A stretch of DNA of 64,000 nucleotides from Escherichia coli (lineage in GTDB: Bacteria; Pseudomonadota; Gammaproteobacteria; Enterobacterales; Enterobacteriaceae). Below, piece by piece: positions 9,455-56,425 of this stretch. The stretch lies in assembly GCF_024223415.1 (NCBI RefSeq), contig NZ_CP100500.1; one strand, given 5' to 3'. Each line of letters opens with the position of its first letter. Position 1 is the first letter of the stretch. The notes beneath the pieces were generated by a model that was not told where the DNA came from, did no database searches, and saw only the letters and a program-made list of their open reading frames with translations. The translations under genes and the position numbers were made by a program.

Positions 9455-9490
9455 TAAAAAAACCTGCTGGTGAGGCAGGTTCTTTTATTT
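9455..9490 (-). terminator. Intrinsic terminator downstream of yehK (minus strand)
   Basis: Hairpin aacctgctgg/ccagcaggtt with flanking A/T runs. Confidence 0.5.
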
Positions 9491-9650
9491 ACTATTTTCA
9501 GGCCTAACACCACAGCCTGTGCAACATCGTGTTCCAACGAACGAATTATAACCACGGCTGGACCCCGTTGCAATTAAGATAATGAGATTTATAATCCAGG
9601 CCATTGGGACGTTGCGCCGGATCGGACCAATTTGAATTATTTAGAGTATA

Positions 9651-47839: not shown

Positions 47840-47975
47840 ACGCCTTATACGGACAACACCACCCCGTAGGACGGATAAGGCGTTTACGCTGCATCCGGCA
47901 ACCTATGCCTGATGCGACGCTGAAGCGTCTTATCATGCCTACATAGCACTGCCACGTATGTTTACACCGCATCCG
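47840..47975. repeat. REP/BIME-type palindromic elements
   Basis: gccggatgcagcgtaaacgcc-type units and tgtttacaccgcatccggca seen after fbaB. Confidence 0.5.
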
Positions 47976-48089
47976 GCATAAAAACACGCGCACTTTGCTA
48001 CGGCTTCCCCCGGGAGGCCGTTTTTTTTGCCTGTCATTCTGGATTAATTTTCACATTGTCGTTTTTGTGATCGTTATCTCGACATTTAA

Positions 48090-50289
<2,200 letters not shown>

Positions 50290-50298
50290 GGACGGTAT

Positions 50299-50751
50299 AT
50301 GACTAACCTGTTTGTTCGTAGCGGAATTTCTTTTGTCGATCGTAGCGAAGTTTTAACCCATATCGGTAATGAGATGCTCGCCAAAGGTGTGGTTCATGAT
50401 ACCTGGCCACAGGCATTAATTGCCAGAGAAGCAGAATTCCCTACCGGGATAATGCTTGAGCAGCACGCTATTGCAATACCGCATTGTGAGGCGATTCATG
50501 CTAAGTCGTCAGCCATTTATCTGTTAAGGCCAACAAATAAAGTTCATTTTCAGCAAGCGGATGATGATAACGACGTGGCGGTATCGTTGGTTATTGCGTT
50601 GATTGTGGAAAATCCGCAGCAGCAATTGAAACTTTTACGCTGTTTATTTGGCAAGTTACAACAGCCCGATATCGTCGAGACACTAATCACTCTTCCTGAA
50701 ACCCAGTTAAAGGAATACTTCACAAAGTATGTTTTAGATTCAGACGAATAA
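50299..50751 (+). CDS. gatA: Galactitol PTS EIIA component
   Basis: 150-aa PTS EIIA-like. Confidence 0.9.
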   Translation: MTNLFVRSGISFVDRSEVLTHIGNEMLAKGVVHDTWPQALIAREAEFPTGIMLEQHAIAIPHCEAIHAKSSAIYLLRPTNKVHFQQADDDNDVAVSLVIALIVENPQQQLKLLRCLFGKLQQPDIVETLITLPETQLKEYFTKYVLDSDE

Positions 50752-50781
50752 ATCCCTCTGTAACAATAAAAAGGACTATTT

Positions 50782-51066
50782 ATGAAACGCAAGATTATTG
50801 TCGCTTGCGGAGGCGCGGTTGCGACCTCTACGATGGCGGCGGAAGAAATTAAAGAGTTGTGTCAGAATCATAATATTCCTGTTGAATTAATCCAGTGTCG
50901 GGTTAATGAAATAGAAACCTATATGGATGGTGTGCATTTGATATGCACCACTGCCAAAGTGGATCGTAGTTTTGGCGATATTCCGTTAGTTCACGGCATG
51001 CCTTTTATTTCTGGTATCGGTATCGAAGCATTACAAAATAAAATTCTGACTATCTTACAGGGGTGA
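50782..51066 (+). CDS. gatB: Galactitol PTS EIIB component
   Basis: 94-aa PTS EIIB-like with active-site Cys near N-terminus. Confidence 0.9.
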
Positions 51067-51069
51067 CCT

Positions 51070-52425
51070 ATGTTTTCAGAAGTCATGCGTTATATTCTCG
51101 ACCTCGGCCCTACGGTGATGCTGCCGATTGTCATCATTATTTTTTCTAAAATATTAGGCATGAAGGCAGGCGATTGCTTTAAAGCGGGTCTGCATATCGG
51201 GATTGGCTTTGTTGGCATTGGCCTTGTGATTGGCTTAATGCTGGATTCCATTGGCCCGGCGGCGAAAGCGATGGCGGAAAATTTCGACCTGAATCTGCAT
51301 GTGGTCGATGTTGGCTGGCCGGGCTCTTCACCAATGACCTGGGCGTCGCAAATTGCGCTGGTGGCGATTCCGATTGCGATTCTGGTTAACGTGGCGATGT
51401 TACTGACCCGTATGACGCGGGTGGTAAATGTTGATATCTGGAATATCTGGCATATGACCTTCACCGGCGCGTTGCTGCATCTGGCAACCGGTTCATGGAT
51501 GATAGGGATGGCAGGTGTGGTAATTCACGCGGCGTTTGTTTATAAGCTCGGCGACTGGTTTGCCCGCGATACCCGAAATTTCTTTGAGCTGGAAGGTATT
51601 GCTATTCCGCACGGTACGTCGGCGTATATGGGGCCGATTGCGGTGCTGGTCGATGCTATCATCGAGAAAATCCCAGGCGTTAACCGAATTAAATTTAGCG
51701 CCGACGATATTCAGCGCAAATTTGGTCCATTTGGCGAGCCTGTCACCGTGGGTTTTGTGATGGGGCTGATTATCGGCATCCTCGCGGGTTACGATGTCAA
51801 AGGTGTATTGCAGCTGGCGGTAAAAACGGCGGCAGTGATGCTGCTAATGCCACGGGTGATTAAACCCATCATGGATGGTTTAACGCCCATCGCTAAGCAG
51901 GCTCGTAGTCGTTTACAGGCGAAGTTCGGCGGTCAGGAGTTCCTGATTGGCCTTGATCCGGCGTTGCTGCTGGGACATACGGCGGTGGTATCGGCAAGCC
52001 TGATTTTTATCCCACTCACCATTTTAATTGCTGTTTGTGTGCCGGGTAATCAGGTGCTGCCGTTTGGCGATCTTGCCACCATCGGCTTCTTCGTGGCGAT
52101 GGCGGTCGCCGTGCATCGTGGAAATCTGTTCCGCACCTTAATCTCGGGTGTCATCATTATGAGCATCACCCTGTGGATCGCGACGCAAACTATTGGTTTG
52201 CACACCCAACTGGCGGCTAATGCTGGGGCGTTAAAAGCCGGGGGTATGGTGGCTTCAATGGATCAGGGCGGTTCTCCCATTACCTGGTTACTGATTCAGG
52301 TTTTCTCCCCGCAAAATATTCCCGGTTTCATTATTATCGGTGCAATTTATCTGACCGGTATTTTCATGACCTGGCGTAGAGCGCGTGGCTTTATTAAACA
52401 AGAGAAAGTCGTTCTCGCAGAATAA
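51070..52425 (+). CDS. gatC: Galactitol PTS EIIC component
   Basis: 451-aa polytopic membrane protein. Confidence 0.9.
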   Translation: MFSEVMRYILDLGPTVMLPIVIIIFSKILGMKAGDCFKAGLHIGIGFVGIGLVIGLMLDSIGPAAKAMAENFDLNLHVVDVGWPGSSPMTWASQIALVAIPIAILVNVAMLLTRMTRVVNVDIWNIWHMTFTGALLHLATGSWMIGMAGVVIHAAFVYKLGDWFARDTRNFFELEGIAIPHGTSAYMGPIAVLVDAIIEKIPGVNRIKFSADDIQRKFGPFGEPVTVGFVMGLIIGILAGYDVKGVLQLAVKTAAVMLLMPRVIKPIMDGLTPIAKQARSRLQAKFGGQEFLIGLDPALLLGHTAVVSASLIFIPLTILIAVCVPGNQVLPFGDLATIGFFVAMAVAVHRGNLFRTLISGVIIMSITLWIATQTIGLHTQLAANAGALKAGGMVASMDQGGSPITWLLIQVFSPQNIPGFIIIGAIYLTGIFMTWRRARGFIKQEKVVLAE

Positions 52426-52472
52426 TTTTTACCTGAGGGGGAGGTTATCCCCCTTAACAATCAGGAGTTTTT

Positions 52473-53513
52473 ATGAAATCAGTGGTGAATGATACTGATG
52501 GTATCGTGCGCGTTGCAGAAAGCGTCATTCCTGAAATTAAACATCAGGATGAGGTGCGGGTAAAAATTGCCAGCTCGGGCTTATGTGGTTCCGATTTACC
52601 CAGGATATTTAAAAATGGTGCACATTATTATCCAATAACGTTAGGCCATGAATTTAGCGGCTATATTGATGCGGTGGGATCCGGTGTTGATGATTTACAC
52701 CCTGGCGATGCGGTTGCCTGTGTGCCGTTATTACCCTGTTTTACTTGTCCAGAGTGTCTGAAAGGGTTTTATTCCCAGTGCGCAAAATATGATTTTATTG
52801 GCTCGCGGCGTGATGGTGGATTTGCTGAATATATTGTCGTTAAGCGAAAAAATGTCTTTGCTCTACCCACGGATATGCCTATTGAGGATGGGGCTTTTAT
52901 TGAGCCGATTACCGTTGGTCTGCATGCTTTTCATTTAGCGCAAGGTTGTGAGAATAAAAACGTTATTATTATTGGTGCCGGAACCATTGGCCTGCTGGCC
53001 ATTCAGTGCGCTGTCGCGCTGGGAGCAAAGAGTGTGACGGCGATCGACATTAGTTCAGAAAAACTGGCACTGGCAAAATCTTTCGGTGCGATGCAAACAT
53101 TTAACAGTAGCGAAATGAGCGCGCCGCAAATGCAGAGCGTTTTACGCGAACTGCGCTTTAATCAGCTTATCCTCGAGACGGCTGGCGTACCGCAAACTGT
53201 CGAACTGGCGGTAGAGATTGCCGGTCCTCATGCCCAACTGGCGCTGGTGGGCACGTTGCATCAGGATCTGCATTTAACATCGGCAACGTTTGGCAAAATA
53301 TTGCGTAAAGAGCTGACGGTTATCGGCAGTTGGATGAACTACTCCAGCCCTTGGCCGGGGCAGGAGTGGGAAACGGCGAGCCGGTTGCTGACAGAACGTA
53401 AGTTAAGCCTGGAGCCATTAATCGCTCACCGTGGAAGCTTTGAAAGCTTCGCCCAGGCGGTGCGTGACATCGCTCGTAATGCTATGCCGGGCAAAGTGTT
53501 GCTCATTCCCTGA
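52473..53513 (+). CDS. gatD: Galactitol-1-phosphate 5-dehydrogenase
   Basis: Zn-dependent alcohol dehydrogenase family motifs (GHEFSG, Cys cluster CFTCPEC, GAGTIG). Confidence 0.9.
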   Translation: MKSVVNDTDGIVRVAESVIPEIKHQDEVRVKIASSGLCGSDLPRIFKNGAHYYPITLGHEFSGYIDAVGSGVDDLHPGDAVACVPLLPCFTCPECLKGFYSQCAKYDFIGSRRDGGFAEYIVVKRKNVFALPTDMPIEDGAFIEPITVGLHAFHLAQGCENKNVIIIGAGTIGLLAIQCAVALGAKSVTAIDISSEKLALAKSFGAMQTFNSSEMSAPQMQSVLRELRFNQLILETAGVPQTVELAVEIAGPHAQLALVGTLHQDLHLTSATFGKILRKELTVIGSWMNYSSPWPGQEWETASRLLTERKLSLEPLIAHRGSFESFAQAVRDIARNAMPGKVLLIP

Positions 53514-53618
53514 AACCGCGGGCCAGCGTGATGCTGGCCCGGTATTGTGCAAAACAGATCATTCACCAATGGTCCCCCTTCGTTTACACTAGCCACAATT
53601 GAATATGGGTAAATGACG

Positions 53619-54392
53619 ATGAATTCATTCGAGCGAAGGAATAAGATCATCCAATTAGTGAATGAACAGGGAACCGTGCTTGTTCAGGATCTGGCGGGAG
53701 TATTTGCTGCCTCGGAAGCGACAATCCGTGCCGATTTGCGCTTTCTCGAACAAAAAGGCGTGGTTACGCGCTTTCATGGCGGTGCGGCGAAAATAATGTC
53801 TGGTAATAGTGAAACCGAGACCCAGGAAGTCGGGTTTAAAGAGCGATTTCAGCTCGCCAGCGCGCCAAAAAACAGAATAGCGCAGGCGGCAGTCAAAATG
53901 ATCCACGAAGGGATGACCGTTATTCTCGACAGCGGAAGTACGACAATGCTTATCGCCGAAGGATTAATGACCGCCAAAAATATCACGGTGATTACCAACA
54001 GTCTCCCGGCAGCGTTTGCCCTTTCCGAAAATAAAGACATTACTCTGGTCGTCTGTGGTGGCACGGTCCGCCATAAAACGCGCTCGATGCATGGTTCCAT
54101 TGCCGAGCGTTCATTACAGGATATTAATGCCGATTTAATGTTTGTCGGTGCTGATGGTATTGATGCGGTTAATGGTATTACGACCTTTAATGAAGGTTAT
54201 TCTATTAGCGGTGCGATGGTCACAGCCGCTAATAAAGTGATTGCCGTTCTCGATTCATCGAAATTTAACCGTCGCGGTTTTAATCAGGTACTACCAATCG
54301 AAAAAATTGACATTATTATTACCGATGATGCTGTGTCAGAGGTGGATAAACTGGCATTGCAGAAGACGCGGGTAAAATTAATTACGGTGTAG
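53619..54392 (+). CDS. gatR: DeoR-family repressor GatR, apparently intact
   Basis: Uninterrupted DeoR-family ORF (HTH plus sugar-binding domain). Confidence 0.85.
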   Translation: MNSFERRNKIIQLVNEQGTVLVQDLAGVFAASEATIRADLRFLEQKGVVTRFHGGAAKIMSGNSETETQEVGFKERFQLASAPKNRIAQAAVKMIHEGMTVILDSGSTTMLIAEGLMTAKNITVITNSLPAAFALSENKDITLVVCGGTVRHKTRSMHGSIAERSLQDINADLMFVGADGIDAVNGITTFNEGYSISGAMVTAANKVIAVLDSSKFNRRGFNQVLPIEKIDIIITDDAVSEVDKLALQKTRVKLITV

Positions 54393-54405
54393 TATTGTTC
54401 TGTAT

Positions 54406-54435
54406 GCCGGATAAGGTGTTTACACCGCATCCGGC
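54406..54435. repeat. REP element
   Basis: gccggataaggtgtttacaccgcatccggc. Confidence 0.5.
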
Positions 54436-54473
54436 ATTACGGATTCTCCCTGGTTCAAGAGAGAATAGTTTGA

Positions 54474-55373
54474 TTAACGCAACAGTGGACAATCTGGTGG
54501 CAGACGGCAACGCAACGCTGCCGGAAGTATTTCAATATGAAAATTTTGCCCACTCAACGGTTCGCCATCAAGATTAAAGGTGATGTCGTGTGGTGCCTGA
54601 ATATCAAACCACGACGAAGCGCCTTCGATAATATTCGGGTTATCTTCGTCAGATTTTAAGGTTGATACGAGAGCCGGAAGTATTTCATCGCCGGTAAAAA
54701 TGCGCAGTTGCAGCAAGCCATCGTTAATTAACGCGTTCGGACACAATTGCTGACCGCCACCGGCCTGACGCCCGTTACCAATACCAATGACCAGGGCGTC
54801 ACCTTGCCAGTGAAAGTTTTCACCGCGGATTTCACAACGGTCCGGTTGCAGAGTATCCATGCGCATTAAGCCATGAATGATGTAAGAGACGCCACCCAGC
54901 GCGGCTTTTAATTTTTCCGGCGTTTCTGTGGTAATACGCGTCCCAAATCCGCCTGTCGCCATATTAATAAAACAGGTTTGTTTGTTGACCTGCGCCATAT
55001 CTATCGCAATGGCGTTACCGGCAATTGCCAGTTTCAGCGCCTTATCCAGTGCCTCAGGAATCCCTACACTGGTGGCAAAATCATTGGCGGTTCCTAATGG
55101 CAAAATTCCCAGCGCGGGTATGTCATCCCCCTCACACTGAATCAACGCCGTAGAAACTTCATTAATGGTGCCATCGCCACCACCGGCAATCACCGTTGCG
55201 ACGCCCAACTTCCGGGCCTCCTCTACATATCGTGCGGCATCGCCTTTCTCCCAGGTGACCCGCACATGGATCGTCATTCCTTCCTCACGCAACAGCATAA
55301 TTGCTTCGCGCAAGGGTAAATTGTCAGTACTTTTGCCATTAAGAATCAGTAAGCTGGCGGGAAATTCTGCCAT
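54474..55373 (-). CDS. yegS: Lipid kinase YegS (DAG kinase-like)
   Basis: 299-aa protein beginning [15 protein letters not shown] with GGDGT motif; internal start chosen. Confidence 0.88.
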
Positions 55374-56253: not shown

Positions 56254-56340
56254 AAAAAAATAAGCCCGTGTAAGGGAGATTACACAGGCTAAGGAGGTGG
56301 TTCCTGGTACAGCTAGCATTTTATGGGTTATGTTTTTCAG
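56254..56340 (-). ncRNA. cyaR: CyaR (RyeE) Hfq-dependent small RNA
   Basis: Reverse complement reads gctgaaaaacataacccataaaatgctagctgtaccaggaaccacctccttagcctgtgtaatctcccttacacgggcttattttttt, matching remembered CyaR with terminator hairpin. Confidence 0.8.
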
Positions 56341-56425
56341 CGAAACGGATGATAACCTTAATAAATGCAGCTGTATGTGATCGGTTTCTAAGAATTTTCC
56401 ATCCGGGAAAAATAATCGAAATTAA

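Follow-up and report, generated by a model that had tools for sequence, protein, structure and literature searches.

Regulators of the DeoR/GlpR family carry an N-terminal HTH domain and a C-terminal DeoRC domain and are expected to be about 250 amino acids long. The effector of a DeoR-family regulator is usually a phosphorylated intermediate of the pathway it controls. AgaR and SrlR (also known as GutR) are DeoR-family repressors of PTS sugar and polyol pathways. Both have the same two-domain architecture and length as the galactitol repressor GatR, and their models align with it over the full length. The regulatory logic is presumably the same, with the repressor freed by a pathway intermediate, but AgaR and SrlR differ from GatR in genomic context and target operon.

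The Salmonella gat cluster differs from that of E. coli in its overall organization. It contains genes, e.g., STM3254, that are absent from the E. coli gatYZABCD cluster (PMC7972205). GatR of Salmonella Typhimurium is also a DeoR-type repressor of the gat promoters, and deletion of its HTH abolishes repression (PMC7972205).

Wild-type E. coli GatR is found in strains HS and EC3132 (WP_001295426.1), where the gene follows gatD and is convergent with yegS. The HS allele is functionally validated. Sousa et al. exchanged the gatR pseudogene of MG1655 for the HS sequence, and the resulting strain regulated the operon and still used galactitol (PMC5850726). In the mouse gut, new IS insertions in the restored gatR gave rise to constitutive mutants again (PMC5850726). 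According to the passage of PMC9189660 that cites Nobelmann & Lengeler 1996, the disruption of the K-12 allele by an IS and the inducibility of the wild type have been known since that work.

In E. coli K-12, gatR (b4498, gatR::IS3E) is annotated in NC_000913.3 as a two-piece pseudogene flanking IS3E. The constitutive gat expression of K-12 is attributed to this insertion (PMC5850726, PMC5094792, PMC10878103, PMC9189660, PMC3446290). The first-pass annotation had named both the lesion and its effect; the insertion is confirmed by the NC_000913.3 annotation and by the junction mapping described below, and constitutivity through the gatR insertion is stated in PMC5850726, PMC10878103, PMC9189660, and PMC3446290. 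One sentence of PMC5850726 names the K-12 element IS1, contrary to the annotation and the junction analysis, which identify it as IS3E.

The window analyzed here is a 64,000-nt stretch of an E. coli chromosome. Its six-frame ORF list contains an uninterrupted plus-strand ORF of 259 aa at 53613-54392. Two in-frame ATG codons lie 6 nt apart at its 5' end, at 53613 (259 aa) and 53619 (257 aa, 774 nt). In strains CFS3292 and HS, which carry this gene without any difference, RefSeq places the start at the second ATG, and the coding sequence is given here as 53619-54392 (+), 257 aa plus stop. In a survey of E. coli genomes, gatR start codons differed and included both ATG and non-ATG codons (PMC11445065).

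The product has both domains of the family within a length of 257 or 259 aa. The N-terminal HTH_DeoR DNA-binding domain (PF08220, E=1.3e-16) is encoded at 53634-53792 (+) and spans residues 8-60 of the 259-aa ORF, matching positions 1-53 of the 57 in the profile. The C-terminal DeoRC sensor and oligomerization domain (PF00455, E=2.5e-51) is encoded at 53865-54326 (+) and spans residues 85-238, matching positions 5-159 of 160. Because both Pfam profiles are covered nearly end to end, the ORF encodes a complete two-domain DeoR-family regulator and is not a chance reading frame. The sole solved relative detected in a PDB sequence search is the distant DeoR C-terminal domain 7l6l (E=1.9e-11). Two antisense ORFs of 83 aa each lie within the gene (53655-53906 and 53849-54100) and were set aside as chance ORFs inside a well-supported gene.

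The gene is located directly 3' of gatYZABCD, between gatD and yegS, in the same order as in the RefSeq annotations of CFS3292, HS, and MG1655. Downstream, yegS is on the opposite strand and convergent, as in HS and EC3132. The protein is WP_001295426.1, and all 774 of 774 nt are identical to HS gatR. Between HS and the window, the gene itself shows no difference; only the upstream gatY promoter region differs, by 11 substitutions and 3 gaps. As NCBIfam offers no model specific to GatR, the name is based on synteny and on the identity of the gene to its K-12 and HS counterparts.

The K-12 pseudogene preserves every base of the window gene. Joining MG1655 fragment 1 (299 nt) to fragment 2 (475 nt) yields the 774-nt window sequence with no base differences. 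The two alleles differ solely by the 1,258-bp IS3E and a 3-bp GAC target duplication. Junctions were located by base-by-base extension from both flanks, using a K-12-type genome and MG1655. Identity on the left extends through 53917 and on the right begins at 53915; the 3-bp overlap corresponds to a GAC duplication around a 1,258-bp insert. In the window this target site, GAC at 53915-53917, is empty; in K-12 it is occupied, with IS3E and the duplicated GAC following the base equivalent to 53917. Apart from IS elements, the window is 100% identical across 987 bp to the flanks of both K-12 and BLR(DE3).

The predicted truncated product of K-12 has 100 residues of GatR, covering the HTH and linker, and 10 further residues derived from the IS. 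As this stub ends after 100 GatR residues, it has no sensor or oligomerization domain. The HTH-only stub and constitutive operon of K-12 stand in contrast to the window gene, where alignment to HS and MG1655 gatR revealed no premature stop and no frameshift in 53619-54392. The first-pass annotation had described a continuous DeoR-family ORF after gatD and proposed an intact gatR; both statements are upheld by the uninterrupted 774-nt gene, its two complete domains, and this alignment.

Other disrupted alleles have arisen independently. Strain BLR(DE3) carries an IS1A insertion in gatR (record L002, 2840-3606), 767/768 bp long with a 9-bp duplication; the corresponding target site in the window, CGATTTCAG at 53844-53852, is empty. 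In strain BS-01, gatR contains an insert of about 437 bp.

The distribution of intact and disrupted alleles was surveyed in 5,426 complete E. coli genomes. A megablast search with 53514-54500 of the window found the gatR region in 5,109 of them. The approximately 317 genomes with no match indicate that some lineages lack the locus. The K-12-type records in this search align from query position 402 and no earlier, and show a second match at another location. The K-12 gatR/IS3 junction, represented by a 140-nt probe that crosses it, was present at full coverage in 344/5,426 genomes; among the four carriers sampled, ER1709, JME66, and DH5a bear names of laboratory strains. Using a 401-bp probe (one place, at least 80% coverage), central gatR was unsplit in 4,725 of the 5,108 genomes having the gene, a count that registers large insertions only and says nothing on point frameshifts. 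Once the 344 K-12-type genomes are subtracted, about 39 genomes remain that are split within the central 401 bp, so that approximately 99% of non-K-12 carriers are uninterrupted there. The independent insertions in BLR(DE3), BS-01, and the roughly 39 non-K-12 splits agree with the de novo IS insertions published for the mouse gut. An intact gatR is thus the norm in E. coli, and its presence here, though correctly read, is not unusual.

The presumed regulated target, gatYZABCD, occupies 48144-53513 (+). All of the structural genes are full length, with gap-free identity of 99.3-100% to HS. The gatA-gatR stretch has 100% identity to HS and, with the IS excluded, to K-12 as well. The gatC gene (51070-52425, +) encodes an intact product of 451 aa; the insertion of 2 nt that renders gatC of MG1655 a pseudogene is absent. 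The last structural gene, gatD (52473-53513), encodes 346 aa.

A 105-nt spacer separates the gatD stop at 53513 from the gatR ATG at 53619. This intergenic region (53514-53618, +) presumably contains the gatR promoter and is 100% identical to HS and MG1655; a promoter consensus scan of the spacer gave no convincing sigma-70 promoter. Directly after the gatD stop is a GC-rich hairpin (53519-53541, +) with a 9-bp stem and no T-run, folding at -20.5 kcal/mol (z=-3.5). It was not called by the terminator consensus scan and may be a partial terminator or an mRNA-stabilizing element. A REP-type hairpin (54399-54443, +; -27.1 kcal/mol, z=-6.6) lies between convergent gatR and yegS. It resembles the REP copies between fbaB and gatY and is likely a bidirectional transcript end. 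The fbaB-gatY spacer itself contains a REP/BIME cluster at 47869-47939 (+), which matches Rfam naRNA4 with 64.5 bits.

The gatY promoter/operator region (48022-48143, +) was examined by promoter scan, palindrome search, and alignment. The consensus scan places a -35-like TCGACA at 48079 and a -10-like CATTAT at 48103 (48079-48108), with a CRP-like TGTGATCGTTATC just 5' of these elements. A perfect palindrome with 6-bp arms, ATTTCA-N8-TGAAAT, is found at 48099-48118 and overlaps the predicted -10. Eight divergent E. coli alleles share the palindrome arms and the CRP-like site without change, and this invariance makes the palindrome a reasonable candidate for the GatR operator.

The gatY promoter also contains a 13-mer, AAAACAAATCATT (48089-48101), that weakly resembles AAAACAGATCATT (53551-53563) upstream of gatR, with 12/13 matching positions. 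It could be a shared box, and so a candidate operator, or a chance match. This 13-mer and one palindrome are all that a search for motifs common to the gatY and gatR upstream regions gave; they are suggestive but fall below significance for operator calls. A literature search for a definition of the GatR operator found none.

Taken at its predicted function, the GatR HTH would bind operators in the gatY promoter and probably in its own promoter as well; the gatY operator may be the palindrome described above. The DeoRC domain would sense a galactitol-derived effector, likeliest a phosphorylated pathway intermediate, and the DNA would then be released. Under this scheme, the gat operon of this strain would stay silent until galactitol induces it, and its expression would also depend on cAMP-CRP. 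K-12 owes its constitutive phenotype to the lineage-specific IS3E, which after codon 100 parts the HTH from the sensor domain, at a site that is empty here.

With an intact gatR identical to the HS allele and with full-length structural genes, the strain most likely has a galactitol pathway that works and is controlled by the repressor. Repressor control had been predicted in the first-pass annotation, and nucleotide identity to the HS allele that restored regulation in MG1655 supports it. Judged from sequence, it is very probable that the window is an E. coli chromosome with an ancestral, uninterrupted gatR ending its galactitol cluster, and that the operon is under GatR control, with repression in this strain predicted from the identity of the gene.

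Regulation could still be altered in spite of an intact gatR, i.e., leaky, constitutive, or super-repressed, through a rare allele of the gatY promoter/operator. Across 305 nt, the fbaB-gatY spacer shows 10-11 substitutions and 3 indels relative to K-12 and HS, and over 156 bp its identity to K-12 is 91.8%. When 47995-48150 of the window was compared with 4,739 genomes, 74 were at least 99% identical and 3,549 were at 90-95%, so the allele is rare. The -35-like hexamer TCGACA is nearer consensus than the TCGATA of K-12 and HS, and a G at 48131, near the ribosome-binding site, is private to the window among the compared alleles. Against a regulatory effect, TCGACA and the AAATCATT variant individually occur in other natural strains, and neither the palindrome over the -10 nor the CRP-like site varies among the 8 alleles compared. 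Most of the differences (48022-48050) lie just 3' of the fbaB terminator and precede the predicted start site by 65-95 nt. At the candidate sites, the eight-allele comparison gave no sign of a lost operator in the gatY promoter region. Altered regulation is rated as improbable next to control by GatR, though the allele may have a quantitative effect.

Across E. coli, the fbaB-gatY spacer is far more polymorphic than the flanking genes. The variability points either to a recombination boundary or to selection on the promoter-distal block that is relaxed or diversifying.

Two further features were noted elsewhere in the window. The CyaR sRNA gene (56258-56343, -; Rfam, 100.7 bits) is flanked by yegR and yegQ, and no P2-type prophage remnant adjoins it. 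The same site holds the PR-X remnant (ogrK, yegZ) in K-12 and apparently a whole prophage in strains H5 and H6. A match to the OrzO-P antitoxin RNA (RF02083, 99.9 bits) at 9456-9531 (-) implies a zor-orz type I toxin-antitoxin locus, which is not known from K-12.

A K-12 derivative with a repaired gatR, whether by precise IS3 excision or by engineering, could resemble the window at this locus. The stretch from gatA through gatR is 100% identical to K-12 outside the IS, and engineered MG1655 strains with restored gatR exist (PMC5850726). The flanks do not fit such an origin: relative to MG1655, fbaB is 98.0%, yegS 99.0%, and the gatY promoter region about 92-95% identical. The window also lacks the MG1655 gatC frameshift and, unlike K-12, the PR-X remnant (ogrK/yegZ) beside cyaR, and its positions 40000-64000 (24 kb) are 100% identical to turkey isolate 181.1. 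This flanking divergence refutes a repaired K-12 origin, which has next to no probability left, and marks the window as natural E. coli. Equally negligible is the reading of the ORF as another DeoR-family paralogue of AgaR or SrlR type instead of the galactitol repressor, since its best NCBIfam matches, AgaR (NF040755, 232.9 bits) and SrlR (NF007753, 226.3 bits), fall under the curated equivalog cut-offs of 260 and 350, and the gene sits between gatD and yegS in gat synteny and is base-for-base MG1655 gatR.

The ancestral state, with probable control by GatR, is retained as the reading of this locus. A broader idea is that gatR acts as a natural IS-driven switch by which populations alternate between constitutive and regulated use of galactitol, and that the rare promoter allele, with its -35 nearer consensus and its variable upstream block, reflects selection on the expression set-point. 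This idea is speculative and unlikely. If true, an intact repressor combined with an unusual promoter would give induction quantitatively unlike that of HS-type strains.

The finding is correct but already known. The window carries the wild-type, uninterrupted gatR, and the broken K-12 copy is the exception. Publications already cover the wild type, the IS3 lesion, and the phenotype that results from it, and no new question is opened. Constitutive gat expression in K-12 is a lesion of a laboratory lineage, which matters for annotation and for the interpretation of experiments. Because this constitutivity is lineage-specific, results from K-12 gut colonization on the cost and loss of gat are not directly transferable to natural strains that bear the repressor.
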